Source: Candidatus Nanoarchaeia archaeon | GTDB lineage: Archaea > Nanobdellota > Nanobdellia > Woesearchaeales > JANQNE01 | Assembly: GCA_028279725.1 (NCBI GenBank) | Contig: JANQNE010000007.1 | Location: 99,406 to 163,405 of the forward strand | Direction of reading: 5' to 3' | Length of the DNA stretch: 64,000 bases | Shown: positions 9,419-43,242 of the stretch, piece after piece | Numbering within the stretch: position 1 is the stretch's first letter | How the letters are laid out: every line of letters starts with the position of its first letter | Notes under the pieces: generated by a model | The model's input: only the letters and a program-made list of their open reading frames with translations | What the model was told of the DNA's origin: nothing | Databases searched by the model: none | Program-made: the position numbers and the translations under genes

Positions 9419-9665
9419 GGGCAAGCTAGACTGGACAGTTAGCTCCTGTCTGTAACCACAACCGAGCTATATGGTGGAGTCGAAGTTTGGAGAGCGCTAT
9501 AGGATTGGCTTATTGGTCTTGAGTTGGACGTTGAAGTTCTGTCCTATAGGACTGGTGCCTTTGAGAATCGGGTCAGGCTGGGAACAGAGCAGCCCTAATC
9601 ATTAGTATTGGTGCTTGTAGGGTAGCGGAATTGAGGAAAATTCAAGGTTAACCATTAGGTTTTTT
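9419..9665 (+). ncRNA. ffs: Signal recognition particle RNA (7S / SRP RNA). Boundaries are approximate.
   Basis: A GC-rich stretch with no ORF in AT-rich surroundings. GGUCAGGCUGGGAACAGAGCAGCC matches the universally conserved SRP domain IV (helix 8) motif GUCAGGUCCGGAAGGAAGCAGC with a GNRA-type loop. It ends in a T-run at 9660-9665. Confidence 0.6.
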
Positions 9666-9924
9666 CTTATATCCATCTCTTTACGTGCTTGCCCGCTTAC
9701 ATTCACCACTTTCTGAAGACTATCACCAAAAAATTTATATAAAACAAACACCTAACAGCTAATTATGAACACCACAAGTAAAATCAGTATATTGAATGTT
9801 CTGGTCTTGCTAGTGGTCGTTGTACTGTAAAGCTCTCAGGCTTCGCTTGGGACTTTGCATGACTGATTCTAAAATGTAATATTCTCAAGCTGAAAAACCA
9901 AGAGCAAATAGGAGGCAAATAGAA

Positions 9925-14333: not shown

Positions 14334-14666
14334 TTATGTTATTGGGATTCCTTGTTCAATTTCCTTATCTGGAGTTAGTAATACACATTCACTCTCATCT
14401 TCTTTTTCTGCACAAAGCAACATCCCTTCTGAGATTTCACCGCCAAACTTGGCTGGTTTTAAATTAATTAAGACAATTATTTTTTTATCTTTTAATTCAT
14501 CTTCGCTGTAATAAGGAACTAAGCTCGTTACTATTTGGATTGTCTTTTCTCCGATATCTACTTTTAATTTATAGAGTTTCTCAGTTTTTGGAACCCTTTC
14601 TACTCCAATTATTTTTCCAACTTTGATTTCCAATTTTTTCCAATCATCAAAATTTATTTGTTCCAT
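14334..14666 (-). CDS. tRNA-binding domain protein (Trbp111/CsaA/EMAP-like OB fold).
   Basis: 110 aa. KVGKIIGVERVPKTEKLYKLKVDIGE...ISEGMLL is the typical Myf-domain pattern. It is inserted between rpoD and L18e. Confidence 0.6.
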   Translation of the reverse strand: MEQINFDDWKKLEIKVGKIIGVERVPKTEKLYKLKVDIGEKTIQIVTSLVPYYSEDELKDKKIIVLINLKPAKFGGEISEGMLLCAEKEDESECVLLTPDKEIEQGIPIT

Positions 14667-17398: not shown

Positions 17399-17475
17399 GC
17401 GGCCATGGTGTAGCCTGGCTAGCATAGGGGACTGTGGATCCTCTAGGGCGGGTTCAAATCCCGCTGGCCGCCCCA
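17399..17475 (+). tRNA. tRNA-His(GUG), intronless, with G-1 and CCA encoded.
   Basis: Acceptor GCGGCCA / UGGCCGC, discriminator C, then CCA. A G immediately 5' (17398) can serve as G-1. D-loop AGCCUGGCUA. Anticodon stem-loop GGGGA-CUGUGGA-UCCUC. T-arm GCGGG-UUCAAAU-CCCGC. A T7 run follows. Confidence 0.8.
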
Positions 17476-20296: not shown

Positions 20297-20637
20297 GTTG
20301 TAGGGTAGCTGTAAGCCACCTTCTGTCAGACCCTCATGCAACACTGGTTACGATGGTCTGCCTTAGCATTTAACTAAGCGTCATTGCCGAATCATTGTTG
20401 ATTCAACATTTTCGACTTGCACAAGCCAGGTCTCGCCGTTTCACCCATTCTCACCAAAACATCAGTTGGTTAACTCCCTTCTCTCGCGAGAAGCTTCACA
20501 ACATCATCTTATCGGTAAGTGGTCTCGTTTCTGAGCCGTTGCCGCAGGTTTCCCCGCCTTGATTCCGCAAGTGGCCACGTATAGTGGGTGGACTTTCCTC
20601 AGACATATGTCCGTCAGCTAAGCACTACCCTACAGCC
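20297..20637 (-). ncRNA. rnpB: RNase P RNA.
   Basis: The minus strand contains CR-I-like GAGGAAAGUCCACCCAC. CR-IV-like AAUGGGUGAAACGGCGAGACC. CR-V-like GACAGAAGGUGGCUUACAG. A P1 helix CUGUAGGGUAG / CUACCCUACA joins the ends. The region is GC-rich and ORF-free. Confidence 0.75.
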
Positions 20638-20656: not shown

Positions 20657-21769
20657 TTAAAAGGTTTTCGATAAAACCACAACCTTATACTCCTGCTTTC
20701 CACTCCAGACTAATCTCTCTGATTCTATCTTAAACTTCTTCCTCAAAGCAGTTTTCTTGAAAAGCTCGATATTCTTTGAAATTGCAACCATTTTCCCTTT
20801 CAAAATAAATTCAGCATTGTGAAAAAACTCATCATAAAGTTTCTGTATAACTGTCGGTCCAGCATGCTGTGTTATTATCGGTGGATTTGTTACAATAAGA
20901 TCAACTGCCCCTTTGTCAAGTTTAGCATCCAGCCATTTTGCTTCGATCCTAGAAAAATTTATCAGCTTCTCAACACCAGCGATCTTTGCATTGTTCTTTG
21001 CAGACTTGATATATCTAAGCTGGTCGTCAAAACCATTCAGTTTAATCTCCTTGCTCTTGTCAGTTTCCTTATCAATCTTATCAAAGAATTTGTCAAAATC
21101 AAACTTCTCAAAACATTTGAATCCTAAAAAAGCAAATTTATCCTTTTGATAAAAATTAACCGGAAACTTTGACTTATGCAGAGCAGCTTCAATTATTAAA
21201 GTTCCACTTCCGCAAAAAGGATCCAATACATTTTCTCCTTCAGCCAATCTATACACGCAATAAGCGACAGTTCCCTTCAGTGCATAAGGATGCTGAAAGA
21301 TCTTATACTGCCTTTTGCTCAGATCAATTCCAGAAAAATCAACTCCAAGATATGCTTTTCCTCCTGAGATATTGACAAAAAAAGTTACATCAGGATCTTC
21401 CAGTTTTACTTTAGCTTTTTTCCTGTCTAAGATAAATCCTCCAACTCTGGATTCAACATCTTGTGTTGATTCATCTCCATCATGCATGCATCTTACACAA
21501 AAAGTTGTATCCTTCCCAAACCATTCATCAATATTTATCTTCTCAACTGATTTCTTTATATCATCAACATCAGAATAATCTACTGTATCAATCAGATAAA
21601 GAACCTTAACAACAGATTGAGCTTTATAACAAAGAAGACAAAGATCTTCCAGCTTACAGTCAAATTCAACACAGCCATCAAGAACTTTCCCCTTAGCTCC
21701 TATCAGCTCAAAAATTTCTTTAGAACAAATATCTTCAAAACCCTTATGAGTTATAGCTAATCCTTTCAT
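20657..21769 (-). CDS. THUMP-domain class I SAM-dependent RNA methyltransferase (Trm14/TrmN-like tRNA m2G methyltransferase).
   Basis: SAM-binding [15 protein letters not shown]. Catalytic DLIVTNPP. N-terminal THUMP-like region. There is a 4-nt overlap with gyrA. Confidence 0.6.
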
Positions 21770-24594
21770 CTCCTTTTCATAGCTTTCTTTCTAAGCTCGT
21801 CTATTGAAGGAACATAGTCTGGCGTTGGCTTTGGATTGAAATCCTCTTCTTTATCTTCTTCAGCAGGTTTTTCCTTTACTTCCTCTGATGATGCTTCTTG
21901 AACTGGCTCTTTCTCTTCAACTTCTTTTCGTGGTTCTTCCTCTTTTTTTTCTTCAACAGGTTCTTCTGGCTGAATCTCTTCCTGCTTTGAATCTTCAACT
22001 GGCTGCTCTTCCTTTACTTCAGGCTGCAGTTCTTCATCATGTCCATTTCCATTCTCTTCTCCAGTTTCCTCTTTTTTTATCGCTTTATTCAGTTCATCTT
22101 CACTTTCAACAACAATCTTTGCAGCTGCAGCAACCTTGTCATCTCCGCCCATCTTCATAAGCCTTACTCCTTGGGTATTTCTTCCTATCTTCGATATTCC
22201 ATCAACTCTGGTTCTGATAACAATTCCCTGCCTGCTCATAAATATAATCTCGTTATCAGGATAGACTGCTTTAACTTCAACAACCTTTCCGTTCCTTTCG
22301 CTGCACTGTATGTTGATTACACCGACCCCACCACGACCGATAACTCTGTATTCAGCCATCGATGTCTGTTTTCCATAACCATTCTCTGTAATAGTAAGCA
22401 ACCTCTTCTTATCAGTTGCAATATCCATACCAATAACTGCATCCTTTCCTTTCAGATTTATTCCTTTTACACCTTTTCCAGTCCTTCCTATTGGCCTTAC
22501 ATCTTTTTCATCAAACCTAATTGCCATTCCATTTTCTGTAGCAAGAACAATATGCCTGCTTCCATCAGTAAGCTTAGCTGTTATCAGATCATCTCCTTCA
22601 TCTAAAGTTATAGCTCTTATTCCTCCTCTTCTGGGTTTCTTAAAATTAGAAAGTGGGGTCTTCTTAATTATACCCTGTTTAGTCGCTAACATCAAGAAGT
22701 GTTCTTCATCAAATTCTTTTACAGGAATAAACGCAGTAACACTTTCTTCCTTATCTAGTTCAACTAAATTAACTATTGGTCTTCCTTTAGCCTGTCTGCT
22801 TCCCTCAGGAATATTATAGACTTTAAGCCAATGTACATTTCCTTTGTCCGTAAATACTAAGATATAACTATGGGTTGACGCAACAAATATTTCCTCTACA
22901 AAATCTTCTTCTTTTGTTCCTGTTGCTATAACACCCTTTCCTCCTCTTGCCTGTAATTTGTAAGTGTTCATAGGAACTCTCTTAACATAACCAGCATGTG
23001 TAACAGTGACGACCATCTTTTCTTCTTCAATAAGATCTTCAAAATCAATCTCAACATCTTGTCCGCCTTCCATGATCTGTGTCTTTCTTTCATCGCCATA
23101 CTTTTCTTTCATATCCTCAAGTTCTTTTTTGATTATTTCCAGTATCTTTTGCTCAGAAGCTAAGATCGCTTTTAATTCTTCAATTAATTCCAACAATCCT
23201 TTATGTTCTTCTTTGATTTTATCTTGCTCTAAGTTAGTTAACTTCTGTAATTTCATATCTAGGATAGCCATCGCCTGCTTTTCACTTAATTCATACTTGG
23301 CGATTAATCCATCTCTTGCTTCAACTGTTGATTTAGATTGTTTGATCAGCTGGATCGCATTGTCGATATCATTCAAAGCTATGATTATACCTTCAAGAAT
23401 ATGCGCTCTTTCCTCAGCCTTAACCAACTCATACTTTGTTCTCCTTCTTACAACTTCTTTTCTGTGATCTATAAAGTTCTGTATTATTTCTTTAAGGTTC
23501 AGTACTTTTGGTTCTCCATCAACCAAAGCCAACAATATCATACCTACAGTTTCCTGCATTCTTGTATGTTTATACAATTGATTAAGAACAATGTCAGGAT
23601 TTGCATCCTGCCTTAATTCAATAACTATCCTCATTCCTTCTCTGTCGCTTTCATCTCTAAGATCAGATATTCCTTGTATCTTTTTATCTCTTACAAGATC
23701 AGCAATCTGTTCTATAAGGTGGGCTTTATTCACCATAAATGGAATCTCAGAAACAATTATCCTCTGCTTATTCTTCATCTCTTCAACATTTGTCCTTGCT
23801 CTTACCAAAACTTTTCCTTTTCCTTTAGAATAAGCACTAAGGATTCCGCCAGTTCCGTAAATAATTCCTCCAGTAGGAAAATCAGGACCTTTGACATTCT
23901 CAACAAGATCCATCGCAGTTACATCAGGATTGTCAATAACTCTTATCGTTCCGTCAATAACCTCGGTCATGTTATGTGGTGGAATTGTCGTAGCCATGCC
24001 TACTGCAATACCACTGCTTCCATTAATCAAAAGATTTGGAATCTTTGAAGGAAGAACAGAAGGCTCTTTCAGGCTATTGTCAAAATTAGGGACAAAATCA
24101 ACAGTGTCCTTATCAATATCAACTAACATCTCTTCAGCAATTCTAGATAGTCTTGCCTCAGTATACCTCATTGCAGCTGCATTATCTCCATCAATTGAAC
24201 CAAAATTTCCCTGACCGTCAACTAAAGTATATCTTAAAGAAAAATCCTGAGCCATCCTGACCATGCTGTCATAGACAGCTGTATCACCATGCGGATGATA
24301 CTTTCCCAGCACCTCTCCAACAATCCTTGCAGATTTCTTAAAAGGCTTGTTATGCATCATTCCCATGCTGTGCATCGCAAAAAGAATTCTTCTGTGAACT
24401 GGTTTTAATCCATCTCTTACATCTGGCAAAGCTCTGCCAACTATTACACTCATAGAATAGTCCAGATAGCTGCTCTTCATCTCATCTTCCACTACCCTTT
24501 GGACTACTTTTTCTTCTGTATTTTGGCCTTTATTTTGCTCTGGTTGGCTATTTTCCTGGCCTTCAATTTCCTTATTTTCAGGGTTTTCAGACAT
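21766..24594 (-). CDS. gyrA: DNA gyrase subunit A with a long acidic C-terminal tail.
   Basis: [25 protein letters not shown]. The active-site Tyr region and a beta-pinwheel CTD. The last roughly 120 aa are an E/K/P-rich low-complexity tail. Confidence 0.9.
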
Positions 24595-24851: not shown

Positions 24852-25133
24852 ATGAAAATCAAATTCGAAAGTGCAAAAGGTGGAAGAGGAATAGACGCAT
24901 GTGCTTCTACTATGACCGAAAGATACGGACTGCAATATGCATTACATAAACTAGAGATGCAAAATCCTTCATTAAGCAGCATAAGGCCTACTGATGTGGC
25001 GGACATTCTAGGCGGTGGAGATGGATATGTTCCAGCTGACAAAATAGGGACTGATTTTGAAACAAACCAACCGATATATCAATTTAGAAATTATGAATTA
25101 ATCACCAGACCTACAATAGAAAAAGGTGAATAA
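24852..25133 (+). CDS. Hypothetical protein, island gene 1.
   Basis: GGTGG RBS. No recognisable domain. Confidence 0.3.
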   Translation: MKIKFESAKGGRGIDACASTMTERYGLQYALHKLEMQNPSLSSIRPTDVADILGGGDGYVPADKIGTDFETNQPIYQFRNYELITRPTIEKGE

Positions 25134-25136
25134 AAA

Positions 25137-25733
25137 ATGATAAGAAGATTAGCGAACAACAGAATTGTCAGAGGACTTGTTACATTTCCTATCATATTCT
25201 CAAGCGGTTGTATAGATGAACTTGTAGATGAAGCTGCCAAAAGTAGAATCAAGAAAATAAAAAAAATCAGTAACAACATCAAACGAGAAGTAGATGATCT
25301 CGGTTATTTTAATGATTCTCTTGTAAACTCTGTGAAAGAAGATGCAAAAAATGCATATGGACAGATGAATTCTGTATTAAATACACTAAGGTATCAAAGA
25401 GAGTATGGCAATAATACTGGAATTCCAGTTCAGCTAAGCCCCGGAGATATAGTTAATTTAGGAAATGGAGGGGTGTTTGACCACAGATACATGAATAGAT
25501 TAAGTAGAGAATCACAAAGAGAAATACAAGTGCAATGTGATGGTTCTGTAAAGATCCTTGAAGGACTGTCTAAAGGAGTTCGTGTAAAACCTAGATGGAT
25601 CGCAAGCGCGATAAAGGGAAGAGGCAACGAACCATATGAGATTCACATTAATGGGGAAACAGCAAAATACAACGGAGAGGCATATGTCATGTCAAGAAAA
25701 AAGTTGAATAACTCAAGATTGTTAAGAAATTAA
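25137..25733 (+). CDS. Hypothetical protein, island gene 2, with a signal-peptide/lipobox-like N-terminus.
   Basis: N-terminus MIRRLANNRIVRGLVTFPIIFSSGC. Preceded by the AAAAAGGTGAATAAAAAATGATA cassette. Confidence 0.35.
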   Translation: MIRRLANNRIVRGLVTFPIIFSSGCIDELVDEAAKSRIKKIKKISNNIKREVDDLGYFNDSLVNSVKEDAKNAYGQMNSVLNTLRYQREYGNNTGIPVQLSPGDIVNLGNGGVFDHRYMNRLSRESQREIQVQCDGSVKILEGLSKGVRVKPRWIASAIKGRGNEPYEIHINGETAKYNGEAYVMSRKKLNNSRLLRN

Positions 25734-25749
25734 AAAAGGTGAATAAAAA

Positions 25750-25845
25750 ATGATACGCACAATAAAAAAGATTTTTGCTGCATTAGTAAAACTTAGTCCA
25801 ATCACAATTGAGATTGAAAGAGAAAATTATGTTTTACTGAGGTGA
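25750..25845 (+). CDS. Possible 31-aa micro-ORF (MIRTIKKIFAALVKLSPITIEIERENYVLLR).
   Basis: It is not in the ORF track, which cuts off at 60 aa. It is preceded by an exact 23-nt copy of the RBS/start cassette of island gene 2. Confidence 0.15.
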   Translation: MIRTIKKIFAALVKLSPITIEIERENYVLLR

Positions 25846-25851
25846 ATAAAA

Positions 25852-26118
25852 ATGCCAGATGATAATTTACCAAATCCAGAAGAACATTTCAAAAAACCAG
25901 AATCACCAGAAGAATACAAGCCTGGAAAATTAGGAGATGCAAAAAGATACGGAAGTCTTCCTCCAGCAAAAAGTTATAGTCAAGAAACTAATTACCAAAG
26001 CAAGCAATTCACAGATGATCTTGCTATAGCAATGAAATTGAGTGATCCGATTGAATTCATGACCAAAATGGGCATGTTCGCTCCAGAAGGTGTAGGAAAT
26101 CCAAGAAAAGGTGAGTAA
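25852..26118 (+). CDS. Hypothetical protein, island gene 3.
   Basis: GAGGTGA RBS. Pro/Glu-rich N-terminus. Confidence 0.3.
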   Translation: MPDDNLPNPEEHFKKPESPEEYKPGKLGDAKRYGSLPPAKSYSQETNYQSKQFTDDLAIAMKLSDPIEFMTKMGMFAPEGVGNPRKGE

Positions 26119-26120
26119 AG

Positions 26121-26423
26121 ATGGAAAACATACAAACAATCAAGATAGGAGATGGTTACCTGGATCTTAAAAATCCAGAATTATGTGATGTTAACTATAA
26201 CGGAAAGATATATCATGGTTGGTACAAGAAGATTGACAAGGCTGGACGTAGATGTTATTTTCTTCCAGAAGACGTCGATTCAAGAAATCCGATCTCAAGA
26301 GACAACATAATTGACATGAAAATAGAACTTAATAAAATAAAAACTGTAGAAGACGCAATAAACTCGAATCTGTTTGCAAAAAACTACAGGGCATTTATCA
26401 GCCCGGAAGATGCAGGAAAATGA
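26121..26423 (+). CDS. Hypothetical protein, island gene 4.
   Basis: GGTGA RBS. 2-nt spacing from the previous gene. Confidence 0.3.
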   Translation: MENIQTIKIGDGYLDLKNPELCDVNYNGKIYHGWYKKIDKAGRRCYFLPEDVDSRNPISRDNIIDMKIELNKIKTVEDAINSNLFAKNYRAFISPEDAGK

Positions 26424-26707
26424 TTCAACAAAATCAACAAACATATGGACACTGGTACCATGACATTGCAGAAAAGATCCCTAGCATTGACGCTGAAATT
26501 GAAGACTGTCAAAGATGTCTAGGTATGATAAGATCTGGAGACAGGCTTAGCCTCATGAAGAGTGGAAGAAGTATAGAAACAAGGGATTATCTGGTCTACA
26601 TGGATATGTTGACTAACTTAAAAATAGCTCTTACTCGATCTAAAAACTTAGTTCCAGCAATGGATGAAAACCCAACTCTAAACACAGAATATGTTTTTGA
26701 AAAATGA
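26420..26707 (+). CDS. Hypothetical protein, island gene 5.
   Basis: 4-nt overlap with the previous gene. Confidence 0.3.
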   Translation: MIQQNQQTYGHWYHDIAEKIPSIDAEIEDCQRCLGMIRSGDRLSLMKSGRSIETRDYLVYMDMLTNLKIALTRSKNLVPAMDENPTLNTEYVFEK

Positions 26708-26771
26708 TTCTCGAAATCTTAACTTAAAACAGAAACCTATTTAAAATTCTCACAAACTCCAGCTTATTAAA

Positions 26772-27398
26772 ATGAAAAATATATTATTGATTGGAGGGAT
26801 GGCATCAGGAAAGACTACACTAGTTGAAGCTCTGATGAAAGCAGATCCTTCCATAAATGACATAAATATGTCAAACTATGCTGTAAAGATTCCGATGACT
26901 TTAATCTCTAAAGATCATCCAGATCTAATGTCATACCCTAAAAATATCTATATTGATACAATCCTGAAAAATCAAACAGTTGATGAAGATTTATTCCGTT
27001 ACAAAAGAAGAGAGATGGATGAATTCTGTCAGAAAGTTAGAGATGTTTATGGAGAGACAATACTCGCAGAACTTGGTTTTTTAGCATCAGACATACACAA
27101 GCAGAATGTCATAGATAATATTGCAAAAGTTCCAAGCGTGAAATACCTTAAAGACCAAGGATTCTATGTTGTTGGTCTTGAATGCAGCTTTGAAGATCAG
27201 ATTCAAAGAAGACTGGAAAATCCAAAAAGTATTGATCATCCCAGCAGATATAAATTAGAAGAACAGATAATGAGAACAAACGCATTCTTCGAGATTAGAG
27301 ACACTACGAAACTTGCAGATAAAGTATATGATACAAGAAAGATTAGATCAGACTCCTCTCAAGTAGTCCAAGAAATATTAAGAGATGCAAGATTATAA
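26772..27398 (+). CDS. P-loop NTPase of the nucleotide/nucleoside-kinase-like fold.
   Basis: Walker A LIGGMASGKTTLVEAL at the N-terminus. 208 aa. The family cannot be assigned by eye. Candidates are dNMP kinase, CoaE-like or zeta-like. Confidence 0.45.
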   Translation: MKNILLIGGMASGKTTLVEALMKADPSINDINMSNYAVKIPMTLISKDHPDLMSYPKNIYIDTILKNQTVDEDLFRYKRREMDEFCQKVRDVYGETILAELGFLASDIHKQNVIDNIAKVPSVKYLKDQGFYVVGLECSFEDQIQRRLENPKSIDHPSRYKLEEQIMRTNAFFEIRDTTKLADKVYDTRKIRSDSSQVVQEILRDARL

Positions 27399-38171: not shown

Positions 38172-38621
38172 TTATTTCTTATTGCCAAAATAGAAAACAT
38201 CATTGATGTCAACATCACCTGGCTCAAAATCACCGCTTCTTGGTTTCGCCTCTTCAACTTTCTTCCCTTCCTTAACTTCAGCCTTAAGTGTCTGCTGTTC
38301 AGGTTTAGGAGCAGGTCTGCTTGCAAGATCTTTCACCATATCTCTCAAAGCCTTAAGCTCTCCAGCCATATTGCCAACTTCTGCCCTTAGCTTATCTGTC
38401 TCTTCTTTAAGTCTCTTCTCACTAAGTTCAGAAAGATATTGCATCTTTCTGTTAATCATATTCAGAATTTCCTGGCTTACCTCTTCTTTCTGCATCCCGT
38501 TCAGCGCCTCTTTACTGATAACCCTCGTCGCTTCTTTTATAGCTTCTTCTTCTGTCGCTATTCCGTGCTTCTTAAATTCATTAACAAGCTGATTTATCTT
38601 TACTGTTTGTTTGACATCCAT
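38172..38621 (-). CDS. Hypothetical coiled-coil protein.
   Basis: 149 aa and helical. No recognisable domain. Confidence 0.3.
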   Translation of the reverse strand: MDVKQTVKINQLVNEFKKHGIATEEEAIKEATRVISKEALNGMQKEEVSQEILNMINRKMQYLSELSEKRLKEETDKLRAEVGNMAGELKALRDMVKDLASRPAPKPEQQTLKAEVKEGKKVEEAKPRSGDFEPGDVDINDVFYFGNKK

Positions 38622-38651: not shown

Positions 38652-39767
38652 TTATTCTTTTTTGTTTAAATACCTTGTAAGAAACTCCTGCCTGTACTCT
38701 TCAAAACTTCCTTTCTCTATCTCTTTCCTTGCCTCTTTTATCATATTCTGCAAAAAATAAAGATTATGTATCGTCGCCAATCTCAAACCGAAATTTTCCC
38801 TGGAATTCAGCATAAAATTAACATAAGCTTTTGAAAAATTCTTGCATGTATAACATTTACACCCTTCTTCTATAGGTGCATTTTCATCAATAAACTTTCC
38901 CCTGTCAAGCCTTATCTGTCCATCTCCCGTAAACAAGCTCCCTCTTCTTGCATTCTGCGCAGGAAATATTGAATCAAATATGTCTGCACCCATTGATATT
39001 GAATTCAGTATCTCTTCAGGAGTGCCCATACCCATTACATACTTTGGCTTCTCCTTATCGATATTCTTCATCCCAGCTTTTATCATCTCATAAGTCTTCT
39101 TCCTGTCCTCTCCGATGCATAACCCTCCAAAAGCAACACCATCAAAATTCAATCCATCAATAAATTTAGCGCTCTCAGAACGCAGATCCTCGAATATTCC
39201 GCCCTGTATTATCCCAAACATCATCTGCTTGTCATTCTTATGAGCTTTCAGACATCTCCCAGCCCAGTCATGCGTCCTATTCATAGAAGCCTTAACATCT
39301 GATTTTTTATCATCATGATGCGGAACATGATCAAATGCCATCGCAACATCACTCCCAAGTTGATTCTGTACTTTTACAGAATCTTCCGGCCTAAACCACC
39401 CGCTCTTTCCGTTGATAGGATCTTTGAACTTCACGCCTTCATCAGAGTATTTGACGAAAAAATCATCAAGCAGCACTTGAAATCCGCCGGAATCAGTAAA
39501 TATCCCTCTATCCCAGTTCATAAACTTATGGATGCCTCCAAATTCCTCGATCAATTTAGAGCCAGGCTTTAAAGAAAGGATAAAAGCATTTGATATCAGG
39601 CATTCAGTGCCCATCTCTTTAAGCTCTTCAGGACTTATATTCTTAACATTTGCCTTCGTCCCAACTGGCATAAAAAACGGAGTCTTCAACCTCCCATGCG
39701 CTGTATTTAGATATCCAGTCCTTGCTTCATTGTCTTCTTTTTTTATCTTGAACATATCAGGAAACAA
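38652..39767 (-). CDS. tgt: Queuine/preQ1 tRNA-guanine transglycosylase, bacterial-type short form.
   Basis: GRLKTPFFMPVGT, DSGGFQV, FGIIQGG, the LFTGDG region, and the zinc motif CKCYTCKNFSKAYVNFM. 371 aa. It lacks the long archaeosine-TGT C-terminal PUA region. Confidence 0.8.
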   Translation of the reverse strand: MFPDMFKIKKEDNEARTGYLNTAHGRLKTPFFMPVGTKANVKNISPEELKEMGTECLISNAFILSLKPGSKLIEEFGGIHKFMNWDRGIFTDSGGFQVLLDDFFVKYSDEGVKFKDPINGKSGWFRPEDSVKVQNQLGSDVAMAFDHVPHHDDKKSDVKASMNRTHDWAGRCLKAHKNDKQMMFGIIQGGIFEDLRSESAKFIDGLNFDGVAFGGLCIGEDRKKTYEMIKAGMKNIDKEKPKYVMGMGTPEEILNSISMGADIFDSIFPAQNARRGSLFTGDGQIRLDRGKFIDENAPIEEGCKCYTCKNFSKAYVNFMLNSRENFGLRLATIHNLYFLQNMIKEARKEIEKGSFEEYRQEFLTRYLNKKE

Positions 39768-39843
39768 GCCACAGATACTTTATAAATATTTTCAATCAGA
39801 AAATTTTATAAAGCTAAATCTCATTTATCTTTAAAGGTGATAG

Positions 39844-40329
39844 GTGTTGGATAACGTAATCCCTTTTTTAAGTGAATGGATGTTCAATTACATAAAGAAC
39901 AGAGATCTGATCACTAAAAAGATCGAGAAGATTGAAGAATATATGAATAAAAGCTATATCTTCGTAAAATACAAAGATAAAAAACAAATATTCTTCATAG
40001 AACCAGAAATAACAAATATTGACGAGACATTAGAAAATATCAATTCCGCAAAAAAAGAGACTGATTCTGAATGGTCCAGCCTGATTGTATTGAATTCTTT
40101 AAACAATCTAAAAGCTATGCAGGATAACTGGAAAACGCTTTCAAAAGATACGAAGTTCAGCATCATGATGATCAATCCTTTCTCTGTCCTGGACAAAAAA
40201 TGGATAATCTCACCTTATGTTCATTCCAAGATCACTGAGCCAAAAACGCTAAAACAGGGCTTAAAAGCCATGTTTGACAGCGTAGAGCGCCTCTCCTTGG
40301 ATGACTTAAAAAGGAAGATCAAGCAATAA
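39844..40329 (+). CDS. Hypothetical protein.
   Basis: 161 aa. No recognisable domain. Confidence 0.3.
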   Translation: MLDNVIPFLSEWMFNYIKNRDLITKKIEKIEEYMNKSYIFVKYKDKKQIFFIEPEITNIDETLENINSAKKETDSEWSSLIVLNSLNNLKAMQDNWKTLSKDTKFSIMMINPFSVLDKKWIISPYVHSKITEPKTLKQGLKAMFDSVERLSLDDLKRKIKQ

Positions 40330-40455
40330 CTTTATAAAGTTCTCATCAAATCAAGCTTTCGTGCACTTGGGACGCAAAGGGTGCCTAATCTAAAAAAAGG
40401 ACTGTGTCCAATCAAATTAAGTTACCTTATTTGGTCCCTTGTGCACAACCTAAAA

Positions 40456-41025
40456 ATGATTTCTAAAGAAAAGAAGAAGGTGTTGCTCCATGTCTGCTGC
40501 GCTCCATGCGCAACTCATGTAATTAACAGACTAAAACTAGCCTATAATCTGACTTTTTTTTTCTACAATCCAAACATCTATCCAGAATATGAGTACAAAA
40601 AAAGACTAGAGAATGCAAAAAAAATAGCTGAAAAACTCAGAGTTCCATTAGTTGAAGGAAAATATGATCCAGACAATTGGCTAAAAGCAGTAAAAGGATA
40701 TGAAGAAGATAAAGAAGGTGGAGAAAGATGCAGCATATGCTTCAACTTTAGGTTAGAAAAAGCAGCAAAATATGCAAAAGAGAACAACTTCAACTTATTC
40801 ACGACAACCCTTACAATAAGCCCATACAAAAATTCAAAAATTATCAACCTTATCGGAAAAGATCTAGAACAAAAGTACAATATTCCTTTCTTTGAATCTG
40901 ATTTCAAAAAAGAAGATGGTTACAAAAAGAGCATAGAACTTAGCAAAAGATTTGACCTGTACAGACAACACTACTGCGGCTGTGTTTTCTCCTTAAACAG
41001 CAGCATTGCATCACCAAAACTATAG
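40456..41025 (+). CDS. queH: Epoxyqueuosine reductase QueH (DUF208).
   Basis: KVLLHVCCAPCATHV is the signature HxCCAPC. The ORF track starts at 40381. The start chosen here is the MISKEKKK methionine. Confidence 0.7.
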   Translation: MISKEKKKVLLHVCCAPCATHVINRLKLAYNLTFFFYNPNIYPEYEYKKRLENAKKIAEKLRVPLVEGKYDPDNWLKAVKGYEEDKEGGERCSICFNFRLEKAAKYAKENNFNLFTTTLTISPYKNSKIINLIGKDLEQKYNIPFFESDFKKEDGYKKSIELSKRFDLYRQHYCGCVFSLNSSIASPKL

Positions 41026-41984
41026 AATCTATATTTATTCTCTATGGCTTCCTTATAAGCTTCAAATATCCTTTCTCTTCCTGCAAAACCGCAAACCAAC
41101 AAAAGCAAAGTTGATTTTGGAAGATGAAAATTAGTTATCAGCACATCAATTCCAGCTTTAAATTCATGTTCTGGAGTGATAAAAAGATTAGACCATCCTT
41201 TCATTACCTTAACTCCATTTCCGTCGACAGAAGCTGACTCTAAAGTCTTCAATGTTGTAGTTCCGACAGCAAACAATCTGCCAGTTCGATTATTGATCGC
41301 ATCAGCACTCTCTTCACTAACTTCAAAATACTCTTCTTCCATCTTATGATCAAGCACATTCTCACTCCTTACAGGAATAAAAGTTCCAAATCCAACATGG
41401 AGAACAACCTTAACAACCTTTACACCTTTCCTCTCGATCTTGTCCAATAGCTCAGAAGTAAAATGAAATCCTGCTGTCGGCGCAGCTACAGATCCTTCCT
41501 CCTTAGCATACGCTGTCTGATAATCTTCATTCTTATCAAGCTCTTTTTTTACATAAGGTGGAGTCGGAAGCTTCCCATATTTTTTCAAATAATCTTCAAC
41601 ATCATCAATATTAAACTTGACGTAAAAAACATCCTTATTCTGTATTATAATAGTGGCTTTCAACCCATCCTCAAATTCCAGCTCATTCCCTTCCCTAGGA
41701 TTATTCGCAGTTATCCTGACCTTATACAGATCATCTTCCTTTCCTGTGATGATCATCTCAGCTTTAGCCCCTGTACTTTTCTTTCCTATCAGCTTAGCTG
41801 GAATCACTTTAGTCTCATTCAAAACTAAAACATCTCCTTCTTCAAAATAATCAAAAATATCTTCGAAATGTTTATGCTCTAATTTATCCTTGACAACTAG
41901 CATCTTAGAGCTGCTCCTTGGAAAAACAGGCTTTTGTGCTATAAGCTCCTCAGGCAATTCATAATCATAATCTTTAAGTTTCAT
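40971..41984 (-). CDS. queA: S-adenosylmethionine:tRNA ribosyltransferase-isomerase QueA.
   Basis: N-terminus MKLKDYDYELPEELIAQKPVFPRSSSKMLVV is the characteristic QueA start. 337 aa. Confidence 0.85.
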   Translation of the reverse strand: MKLKDYDYELPEELIAQKPVFPRSSSKMLVVKDKLEHKHFEDIFDYFEEGDVLVLNETKVIPAKLIGKKSTGAKAEMIITGKEDDLYKVRITANNPREGNELEFEDGLKATIIIQNKDVFYVKFNIDDVEDYLKKYGKLPTPPYVKKELDKNEDYQTAYAKEEGSVAAPTAGFHFTSELLDKIERKGVKVVKVVLHVGFGTFIPVRSENVLDHKMEEEYFEVSEESADAINNRTGRLFAVGTTTLKTLESASVDGNGVKVMKGWSNLFITPEHEFKAGIDVLITNFHLPKSTLLLLVCGFAGRERIFEAYKEAIENKYRFYSFGDAMLLFKEKTQPQ

Positions 41985-42715
41985 TTGAACTTCTCCAGAA
42001 ACTTCATGTCTTTATTTAACTTTATCGCTTCATCCCTATATTTCTTTCCTTCTCTATTCTTTCCGATCTCAAAACAGTGTATTGCCATCTCTGCAAAAGA
42101 ATGTGCTGTCGGAAATTCTTTTATCTTCTTTTCCAATAACTTATAATAAAACTCCCCTTTGCTTTTTCCAAAATGATGCATAGGAATCTCAGAGTTGACA
42201 ACTTTTCCTTTTATATTATTAAAAACAGTCTCATGTATTGGATATTCAAACTTAACTCCTTTTTTATTTCTAAATAATCTTATTATCCCTCTAAATTGCC
42301 AGCCTAAAAACTTCTTGCTCTCTTCATAACTATCTCCTTCGCTAGATCTCCATTTTATTGGTTTCTCCTCATTATAATAGTTCCTCTGTACAAATTTATA
42401 ACCATTGACACTTTCATCCTTAACAAGATCCTCAATCTTCTTCAGATCTATCAGAGAAATCCTTTCATCAGCATCTAAAACTAAAATCCAATCTCCGTTG
42501 GCTTTTGAAATAGAAAAATTCCTTGCAGCAGAAAAATCATCACACCATTCAAAATCAAAAACTTTTGCTCCGAAACTCCCAGCAATATCTTTTGTCCTGT
42601 CAGAACTTCCAGTATCGACAACTATGATCTCATCAACAAAATCCCTTACAGATTCTAGACAAGCGCTAATATTCTTCTCCTCATCCTTAACAATCATACA
42701 CAAAGAAATGGTCAT
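41981..42715 (-). CDS. Family 2 glycosyltransferase.
   Basis: ISLCMIVKDEEKNI...VVDTGSSD is the GT2 DxD region. There is a 4-nt overlap with queA. Confidence 0.65.
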   Translation of the reverse strand: MTISLCMIVKDEEKNISACLESVRDFVDEIIVVDTGSSDRTKDIAGSFGAKVFDFEWCDDFSAARNFSISKANGDWILVLDADERISLIDLKKIEDLVKDESVNGYKFVQRNYYNEEKPIKWRSSEGDSYEESKKFLGWQFRGIIRLFRNKKGVKFEYPIHETVFNNIKGKVVNSEIPMHHFGKSKGEFYYKLLEKKIKEFPTAHSFAEMAIHCFEIGKNREGKKYRDEAIKLNKDMKFLEKFK

Positions 42716-43242
42716 TTTCTCTCTTCTAGATACTTCTTCCTCACACCAACTAAAAAATCTCTTACCAATCTTGTCCTGTAATCAGGAAAAGTATGCCTTG
42801 AATCCTCATAGTCTCCTTTCCTATATTCTAAAACAACATCCCCAAACATCCCTCTGCCAATAGACACTTTATGAGGCATTTCCTTAGCACTTGCCAAAAC
42901 AACATTATGCTCAGTCATATAGCCAGGATCAAGATTTATTTTTCTCTTCCCATCTTCAGAAAGATTATCTTCTATTTTGTTTGTAAAATGCTTTATCTCA
43001 GCCAATTCATCTCTATCAACTAGTTCCTCAAACACGATAATCCTCTTCTTAAGATCCTTTCCACTCTCATCTTCATAATAATCTGTAAAATCAAAAGCAT
43101 AATCATCACTCTGACAACATATTTCCCCAAATCTTTCAGAAAGGGTTCCAACAACCCCATCAAAAACTTCCTTATCTCTGTACATGATTCCAACTATAAG
43201 TTTAACCTTTGATATTTGCTTTATACTGGCCATAATAAGCAA
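42712..43242 (-). CDS. Hypothetical protein, first gene of the operon with GT2 and queA.
   Basis: 176 aa. 4-nt overlap with GT2. Confidence 0.35.
   Translation of the reverse strand: MLIMASIKQISKVKLIVGIMYRDKEVFDGVVGTLSERFGEICCQSDDYAFDFTDYYEDESGKDLKKRIIVFEELVDRDELAEIKHFTNKIEDNLSEDGKRKINLDPGYMTEHNVVLASAKEMPHKVSIGRGMFGDVVLEYRKGDYEDSRHTFPDYRTRLVRDFLVGVRKKYLEERK

Follow-up and report, generated by a model that had tools for sequence, protein, structure and literature searches.

Queuosine at the wobble position of tRNA is still called a bacterial and eukaryotic trait lacking in archaea in a 2022 review (PMC8879553), and in the literature searched we found no biochemical or mass-spectrometric report of queuosine in any archaeal tRNA. 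Co-localised genes for QueA, a QueH-like protein and Tgt were, however, depicted in 12 DPANN genomes by Castelle et al. in 2021 (Front Microbiol 12:660052, PMC8204110, Fig. 4), who read the trio in Woesearchaeota-type DPANN as a laterally acquired queuosine pathway. The presence of the trio in DPANN archaea is hence already known, and corresponding Woesearchaeota proteins already bear these names at NCBI. The locus described here adds a further genome with the same three co-localised bacterial-type genes. We consider it likely that they constitute a functional version of the final three steps in the bacterial queuosine pathway, which would be of old bacterial origin, run through preQ1 and probably depend on precursor salvage.

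The genes lie in a 64-kb stretch of DNA, hereafter referred to as the window, which is part of the chromosome of a Woesearchaeote, a DPANN archaeon. The window contains an archaeal RNase P RNA (20300-20633), an archaeal SRP RNA (9419-9694), PCNA and archaeal ribosomal-protein operons, and the queuosine trio itself lies between the gene for PCNA, which is of archaeal type, and further genes of the archaeal backbone. The relevant features are as follows.

17399..17475, plus strand: tRNA-His(GUG), predicted Tgt substrate (ARAGORN and Rfam)
38172..38621, minus strand: orf149, coiled-coil protein, same strand as tgt and 30 nt downstream of it
38652..39755, minus strand: tgt, bacterial-type tRNA-guanine(34) transglycosylase, 367 aa from ATG (TIGR00430, PF01702)
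39756..39843, no strand assigned: intergenic region between the divergent tgt and orf161, containing two TATA-like boxes
39844..40329, plus strand: orf161, Woesearchaeota-specific hypothetical protein between tgt and queH (38 homologues)
40456..41025, plus strand: queH, predicted B12-independent epoxyqueuosine reductase, 189 aa (PF02677)
40971..41984, minus strand: queA (NF001140, TIGR00113, PF02547)
41981..42715, minus strand: GT2 glycosyltransferase (PF00535)
42712..43242, minus strand: DUF4416 protein, whose gene opens the DUF4416-GT2-queA transcription unit

The reading frames of tgt, queH and queA are intact and lie exactly where the original prediction had placed them. The length of 371 aa given there for Tgt holds for a start at TTG 39767, whereas the database copy starts at ATG 39755 and comprises 367 aa. 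For queH, the start is most likely ATG 40456 (189 aa), which matches the call on an independent assembly. The stop codon of the GT2 gene overlaps with the start codon of queA in the sequence ATGA, and the same four-base overlap is found at the DUF4416/GT2 junction. queA and queH are convergent, with a 55-nt overlap of their 3' ends that is also present in a related contig from another sample (L125). The TATA-like boxes between tgt and orf161, TTTATAAATA at 39780-39789 and TTTTATAAAG at 39803-39812, each precede a start codon by approximately 25-40 nt and probably represent archaeal promoters.

Profile searches bore out the assignment of all three genes, with Tgt and QueA scoring above the curated NCBI cut-offs and QueH above that of Pfam. 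Tgt matched PF01702 over residues 14-366 (E = 1.4e-131) and reached 422.2 bits against TIGR00430, the model for tRNA guanosine(34) transglycosylase (model positions 1-365 of 368; cut-off 306.75 bits), compared to 160.2 bits against the archaeosine model TIGR00432, which is below the cut-off of 350. Profile search detected no PUA domain, no C1/C2 domains and no C-terminal extension in Tgt, which consists of a single catalytic domain, and the nearest solved relative was T. maritima TGT (2ash; 345 bits, full-length alignment). Thus, the protein is of the short bacterial, non-archaeosine form, as had been proposed. QueA scored 410.1 bits against NF001140 (cut-off 324) and 364.6 bits against TIGR00113 (cut-off 267.45), covered positions 1-322 of 322 in PF02547 and aligned over its full length (residues 1-329) with T. 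maritima QueA (1vky; 309 bits). QueH matched no NCBIfam model but obtained 239 bits against PF02677 (cut-off 23.5; 174 of 175 profile positions) and 148 bits in a full-length alignment with T. maritima QueH (7lc5). It has the conserved cysteines (CCxPC, CxxC and CxC), and all six of those shared with the solved enzyme are retained. Its HVCCAPC motif is the majority form, and CCxPC is found in 105 of the 107 relatives having the motif. Of the motifs quoted in the original prediction, HVCCAPC, MKLKDYDYELPEELIAQKP of QueA and the zinc motif CxCxxC...H of Tgt are present, while the supposed LFGIIQGG of Tgt reads MFGIIQGG.

Given that the trio is bacterial in type, we considered whether a bacterial fragment had ended up in an archaeal contig through faulty assembly or binning. 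Such an artefact is scarcely credible, since the three genes are interleaved with the archaeal backbone on one contig, their junctions recur identically in an independent Logan assembly (L001) and the same gene order is found in contigs of two other samples (L125 and L126), whose Tgt is 59% identical. Moreover, the composition of the trio matches that of the host (GC 0.34-0.39, compared to 0.366 +/- 0.025 for the window; codon-usage correlation within approximately 1 SD of the window mean), and its nearest homologues are all archaeal. Among the 120 closest relatives of Tgt, all named ones are archaeal, while the best bacterial species representatives share no more than 45% identity with it. 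In neighbour-joining trees, which were built from a biased sample of sequences, archaeal Tgt formed a group of its own against the sampled bacteria with 100/100 bootstrap support, and the Woesearchaeal QueA sequences clustered at 92/100. A metagenome scan with QueA returned mostly bacterial (gut) loci. Since the archaeal Tgt clade comprises at least 114 sequences, and since GC content and codon usage are host-like, the transfer must be old; the sequences indicate that the trio is of bacterial origin, was acquired in an ancient transfer and now constitutes an archaeal lineage of its own. The horizontal acquisition by an archaeal host that had been postulated is therefore upheld, with the qualification that it is ancient. 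We also looked for signs of delivery by a mobile element or virus and obtained no support for it; no integrase gene was found among the ORFs, and flanking repeats were at chance level only. Phage records contained no match closer than 46% identity.

Comparison of related contigs revealed that the presence of the trio varies on a shared backbone. All three genes are found in the window and in L125, only tgt is found in L007, and none of them in L128 and L130. The trio occupies a variable slot in an otherwise conserved segment of the Woesearchaeal chromosome, and it would now be inherited, lost and regained within archaea. Direct adjacency of queA and tgt is typical of Firmicutes (L133) and persists in the sister group of the archaeal clade (L132). 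As for the neighbouring genes, orf161 has 38 homologues, of which all named ones belong to Woesearchaeota, and we examined it as a candidate partner of Tgt; it was rejected because L128 and L130/L131 carry it at the same place in the backbone and have no tgt, queA or queH there. A counterpart of orf149 with 29% identity follows tgt in L125/L126; profile search gave no family match for orf149, and there was no match at that position in L007, L128 and L130. The GT2 protein was considered as a queuosine glycosyltransferase, by analogy to eukaryotic galactosyl-Q, and dismissed in this role, because its nearest solved relatives, the flagellin O-GlcNAc transferase GmaR (119 bits) and SunS, glycosylate proteins or peptides. 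Furthermore, the GT2 gene is absent next to queA in every other archaeal locus, among them L125/L126, L132 and another Woesearchaeote (L135). The operon of queA and GT2 that had been predicted is therefore real in the window, as judged by the ATGA overlap, but is not conserved in relatives. The GT2 is a lineage-specific addition outside the pathway, and GT2, DUF4416 and orf161 are no conserved pathway partners.

We next turn to the active site of Tgt. The catalytic residues D92 and D265 (371-aa numbering) correspond to D102 and D280 of Z. mobilis TGT, and the zinc ligands C303/C305/C308/H334 (371-aa numbering) to C318/C320/C323/H349. The base-recognition residues D156, Q203, G230 and L231 (Z. 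mobilis numbering; D146, Q, G215 and L216 in 371-aa numbering) are all kept, and catalytic, zinc-binding and base-recognition residues are conserved in 114/114 members of the archaeal clade. The alignment of substrate-specificity residues that the original prediction had called for thus placed all of these as expected and revealed changes at positions 158 and 233 (Z. mobilis numbering here and below). V148 of Tgt replaces Cys158, a pocket-lining but non-catalytic residue, and I218 replaces Val233, a conservative swap that is likewise found in T. maritima. Position 158 is occupied by Val, Met, Leu or Ile in 114/114 clade members and never by Cys, whereas Cys158 is present in 86/87 bacterial and sister-group sequences outside the archaeal clade. 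In addition, the clade displays a shift from Val to Ile at position 233, where Ile, Leu, Phe or Val occur, and from Leu to Ile at position 68. In Z. mobilis TGT, the C158V substitution increases the Km for preQ1 from 0.9 to 16 uM, which is equivalent to an approximately 18-fold lower affinity (PMC3660597 Table 1), so that the archaeal enzymes could bind preQ1 with a different affinity or even favour a different base.

It is conceivable that this remodelled pocket serves to insert another base, e.g. preQ0 or another 7-substituted 7-deazaguanine, in which case position 34 would be non-standard in some archaea. In line with this, queA and queH are missing from the neighbourhood of many clade members, and most of the archaeal tgt loci that we examined lack queA or queH within 10 kb. 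However, QueA requires the aminomethyl group of preQ1, and queA is intact in the window, L125, L132 and L135, as is queH except in L132. Leu231, the replacement of which is a mark of preQ0-specific archaeal enzymes (PMC5699537), is retained in 110 of 118 close Tgt relatives, and the changes at positions 232 and 233 could compensate for that at 158 and restore binding of preQ1. Insertion of another base is therefore improbable in our view, and we see similarly little chance that DPANN wobble chemistry departs from the bacterial one in that Tgt would use preQ0 from the archaeosine precursor pool.

Valine at position 158 is also the eukaryotic state (PMC3660597, PMC5699537), which would be consistent with direct salvage as in eukaryotes and Chlamydia, where finished queuine is inserted by Tgt. 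We regard this as very improbable for the window. In queuine-accepting enzymes, glycine at position 233 opens and enlarges the pocket (PMC3660597, PMC5699537), while this position is Ile here and is Gly in 0/114 clade members. QueA and QueH would moreover be left without a role, and partial family-library scans, which were not targeted at these proteins, turned up neither Qng1 nor the QueK hydrolase among the window ORFs. Of the two salvaged bases originally proposed, preQ1 or queuine, preQ1 is hence favoured and queuine disfavoured. The presence of both QueA and QueH makes it likely that preQ1 would be inserted first and then matured on the tRNA. The clade-wide loss of Cys158 apparently represents a new detail beyond published work; the main text of Castelle et al. 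makes no mention of pocket residues (PMC8204110).

Regarding the source of preQ1, the window contains none of queC, queD, queE and queF, in agreement with what had been stated from the sequence before, and no folE, arcTGT or second TGT-like gene. Likewise, neither the transporters QueT and YhhQ nor a preQ1 riboswitch were detected in the 64 kb. A radical-SAM gene examined as a candidate QueE turned out to be AmmeMemoRadiSam, and a PP-loop gene examined as QueC is NadE. In the archaeal loci with Pfam calls (L123-L135), the surroundings of tgt, queA or queH out to 10 kb contained no preQ0-synthesis gene and no queF. Biosynthetic capacity is generally limited in DPANN genomes. Together with the lack of synthesis genes nearby, this suggests that preQ1 is most likely imported, and we infer, judging from 64 kb of genome, that it would be taken up from the environment or a host. 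In L135, the gene of an MFS transporter overlaps with the start codon of queA, and uptake of preQ0 and preQ1 is known for one member of the MFS family (PMC11130926).

A complete pathway, with preQ0 synthesis (folE/queD/queE/queC) and QueF encoded outside of the window and preQ1 made in the cell, would be compatible with the fact that the window covers 64 kb of a 214-kb contig. Many archaea make preQ0 for archaeosine (PMC5699537), and Castelle et al. cite 'complete and/or partial' pathways in 34 archaeal genomes (PMC8204110). For DPANN, on the other hand, the same study gives only QueA, QueH-like and Tgt (PMC8204110), and in view of the missing synthesis genes in the window and around the related loci, as well as the limited biosynthetic capacity of these organisms, we consider cellular synthesis unlikely.

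In the favoured model of preQ1 salvage, Tgt would exchange the wobble G34 of tRNAs with GUN anticodons (Asp, Asn, His and Tyr) for the free base preQ1, QueA is predicted to convert preQ1-tRNA to epoxyqueuosine-tRNA using S-adenosylmethionine, and the B12-independent QueH would reduce epoxyqueuosine to queuosine. What the enzymes do, which tRNAs they act on, that preQ1 is the base used and that it is salvaged are all predictions from sequence. The window itself encodes a putative target, as the anticodon loop of tRNA-His, C-U-G-U-G-G-A, contains U33-G34-U35, the minimal recognition element of bTGT (PMC3660597). The existence of a large and conserved archaeal enzyme clade implies that many DPANN archaea may read NAU/NAC codons by means of a modified wobble base of the bacterial kind. 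Dependence on a precursor made by others is probable and would constitute a concrete metabolic tie of these symbionts to their community, while the clade-wide change at position 158 singles out a specific residue of interest for the chemistry of the reaction.

Among known systems, bacterial precursor-salvagers that possess bTGT, QueA and QueG/H and lack QueDECF (PMC11130926) resemble the window in their enzymes and in the predicted logic, by which a precursor base is imported, inserted by bTGT and completed on the tRNA; the window differs from them in its archaeal host, in the loss of Cys158 and in that no QPTR/YhhQ, QueT/QrtT or preQ1 riboswitch is found in it. Eukaryotic QTRT1 and other queuine TGTs have the fold, the catalytic Asp pair, the zinc site and Val158 in common with the Tgt of the window, which in contrast carries Ile instead of Gly at position 233, is accompanied by QueA and QueH and has no QTRT2-like partner in sight. 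ArcTGT (TIGR00432; P. horikoshii 1iq8) is a homologous TIM-barrel enzyme, to which the window Tgt aligns with 81 bits; unlike arcTGT, the latter is devoid of C1/C2/PUA and keeps Leu231 where arcTGT has a Val-Val pair (PMC5699537). Compared to the DPANN clusters of Castelle et al., finally, the trio in the window has a backbone ORF inserted between its members, and its queA is coupled to a GT2-DUF4416 pair.

The three queuosine genes named in the original prediction are real: all are intact and pass their model cut-offs.

38652-39755 (-): tgt; TIGR00430, which models the bacterial G34 transglycosylase, 422 bits (cut-off 306.75)
40456-41025 (+): queH; PF02677, 239 bits, entire profile covered
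40971-41984 (-): queA; NF001140, 410 bits, cut-off 324

The proposal that Tgt is of the bacterial rather than the archaeosine type was likewise borne out, as the protein scored merely 160 bits with the archaeosine enzyme model (cut-off 350) and a profile search found no PUA extension on it. The motifs cited at that time are present in the window proteins, except that 'LFGIIQGG' in fact reads MFGIIQGG. Tgt, QueA and QueH could be aligned end to end with the solved bacterial enzymes 2ash, 1vky and 7lc5, respectively; the public copy of Tgt has 367 aa, starting at the second Met, and the gene call for QueH in an independent assembly gives 189 aa. The NCBI pipeline already gives these protein names in Woesearchaeota, and co-localised QueA, QueH-like and Tgt proteins were described in 12 DPANN genomes by Castelle et al. 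(2021; PMC8204110), so that the finding is a correct rediscovery of a known gene trio.

The window comes from an archaeon, more precisely a Woesearchaeote, and carries two archaeal RNAs detected with Rfam:

20300-20633: archaeal RNase P RNA
9419-9694: archaeal SRP RNA

Other genes encode PCNA, RNase J and a Trm14-type methyltransferase, alongside archaeal ribosomal-protein operons. The family of orf161 (39844-40329, +), located between tgt and queH, has 38 members, the named ones all being 'Candidatus Woesearchaeota archaeon', and Woesearchaeota assemblies such as GCA_016185755.1 have the same gene order around the locus. We considered an assembly artefact and ruled it out: the junctions recur in an independent Logan assembly of run SRR20820740 (L001), which repeats the order GT2-queA-queH-orf161-tgt-orf149-PCNA-RNase J, the same order is found on contigs from two other samples (L125 and L126) whose Tgt is 59% identical to that of the window, and tgt, queH and queA are within the window's range in both GC content and codon usage. 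Two other bacterial-looking genes occur on this archaeal contig, namely a putative DNA gyrase subunit A (21766-24594, -), whose syntenic counterpart in L130 bears DNA_topoisoIV and GyrA C-terminal Pfam domains, and a stand-alone CsaA/YgjH-type tRNA-binding protein (14334-14666, -; 141 bits, slightly below the 150-bit cut-off). Separately, six or seven small plus-strand ORFs in a row (24852-27398), with locally reversed GC skew, are flanked by long minus-strand blocks and may be what is left of a mobile element or virus.

Comparison of five related genomes revealed that the Q-gene locus is a variable slot inside a conserved backbone, RNase J-PCNA-[x]-orf161-[y]-PRC barrel-TraB-membrane genes-Hef-HtpX, which in L007 is without the TraB gene.

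Table. Occupancy of slots x and y in the shared backbone.
Window: x, tgt; y, queH, queA, GT2, DUF4416
L125/L126: x, tgt; y, queH, queA
L007: x, tgt; y, no Q genes
L128, L130/L131: x, empty; y, other small ORFs

PCNA identity to the window's protein is 73-74% in L128 and L130/L131 and 72% in L125. Since genomes with and without Q genes have the same backbone, orf161 belongs to that backbone and is not a pathway component. The convergent 55-nt overlap of queA and queH is identical in the window and L125; GT2 and DUF4416, coupled to queA through ATGA overlaps, are a later addition. Downstream of tgt, after a gap of 30 nt, the same strand carries a 149-aa coiled-coil ORF, orf149 (38172-38621, -). 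An ORF 29% identical to it follows tgt in L125/L126, and none is present at that position in L007, L128 or L130; orf149 could have moved together with tgt, or its sequence could just be evolving quickly. The records of L005 (CAYWPA010000007.1) and L007 (CAZRPY010000001.1) are labelled 'uncultured Methanosarcinales archaeon'. For L007 this label looks wrong, judging by the Woesearchaeal backbone shared with the window (PCNA 65% and PRC-barrel protein 84% identical, orf161-family member present).

QueH does not need cobalamin. As QueA and QueH are intact, the expected route is that Tgt would insert preQ1 at G34, which QueA and QueH would then mature on the tRNA. A single tRNA gene lies in the window, that for tRNA-His(GUG), and its product carries U33-G34-U35, the element required by bTGT. 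Tgt retains every catalytic, zinc-binding and base-recognition residue. At position 233 (Z. mobilis numbering) the window protein has Ile, and Gly never occurs there in its clade of 114 archaeal sequences; Val-to-Gly is the change that lets eukaryotic TGTs accept queuine (PMC3660597, PMC5699537). Every one of the 114 members has Val, Met, Leu or Ile at position 158, whereas Cys is found there in 86 of the 87 bacterial and sister-group sequences that fall outside the clade; further clade shifts are Val to Ile at 233 and Leu to Ile at 68. In Z. mobilis TGT, C158V raises the Km for preQ1 from 0.9 to 16 uM with guanine unaffected (PMC3660597, Table 1). In the archaeal enzymes the loss of Cys158 may be compensated, may make preQ1 binding weak or may go with a preference for a different base. 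This clade-wide replacement seems to be a new detail. The literature searched yielded no report of queuosine in archaeal tRNA. The remaining interest lies in the chemistry of the modification and the clade-specific pocket change.

The original interpretation was broadly right, and precursor salvage is the better guess, although 64 kb cannot prove it. It is favoured because queC/D/E/F, a second TGT-like gene, QueT, YhhQ and a preQ1 riboswitch were all absent from the 64-kb window, and the same families from the 10 kb around the Q genes of other archaeal loci having Pfam calls, and because in the Woesearchaeota locus L135 (GCA_019322435.1, 10957-13298) the end of a gene for a 452-aa MFS_1 transporter overlaps the start codon of queA as ATGA. 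Import of preQ0/preQ1 is known for one MFS protein (PMC11130926). The L135 protein is a candidate importer of queuosine precursor in archaea; the window has no homologue of it.

Sequence relationships indicate that the bacterial transfer of the Q genes is old. Among the 120 closest Tgt relatives every named protein is archaeal (Woesearchaeota, Nanoarchaeota, Ainarchaeum, Diapherotrites), as are the nearest named QueH proteins, and in a comparison with GTDB species representatives archaeal Tgt hits reach 57% identity at best and bacterial ones (Clostridia and others) at most 45%. One clade member, P0094, which has 366 aa and shares 49% identity with the window Tgt, bears the NCBI name 'tRNA-guanine(15) transglycosylase [uncultured archaeon]', probably an archaeosine label assigned from the archaeal host. 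A second DPANN-type genome from the same sequencing run (L123/L124; GCA_028279745.1, Logan SRR20820740; 1.3-Mb contig) has a Tgt of this clade, 55% identical to the window's, with neither queA nor queH found within 10 kb. Woesearchaeal QueA sequences cluster with a bootstrap of 92/100. In an NJ tree of Tgt, the 114-sequence clade has zero bacterial members; together with a nine-member sister group it splits from the sampled bacteria with a bootstrap of 100/100, the inner clade by itself receiving 46. Two clusters of the sister group point to archaea: in one, a member is named 'Euryarchaeota archaeon', and the other is represented on the L132 contig, where an archaellin gene occurs along with a queA-tgt pair, the latter matching the typical Firmicutes arrangement (L133).
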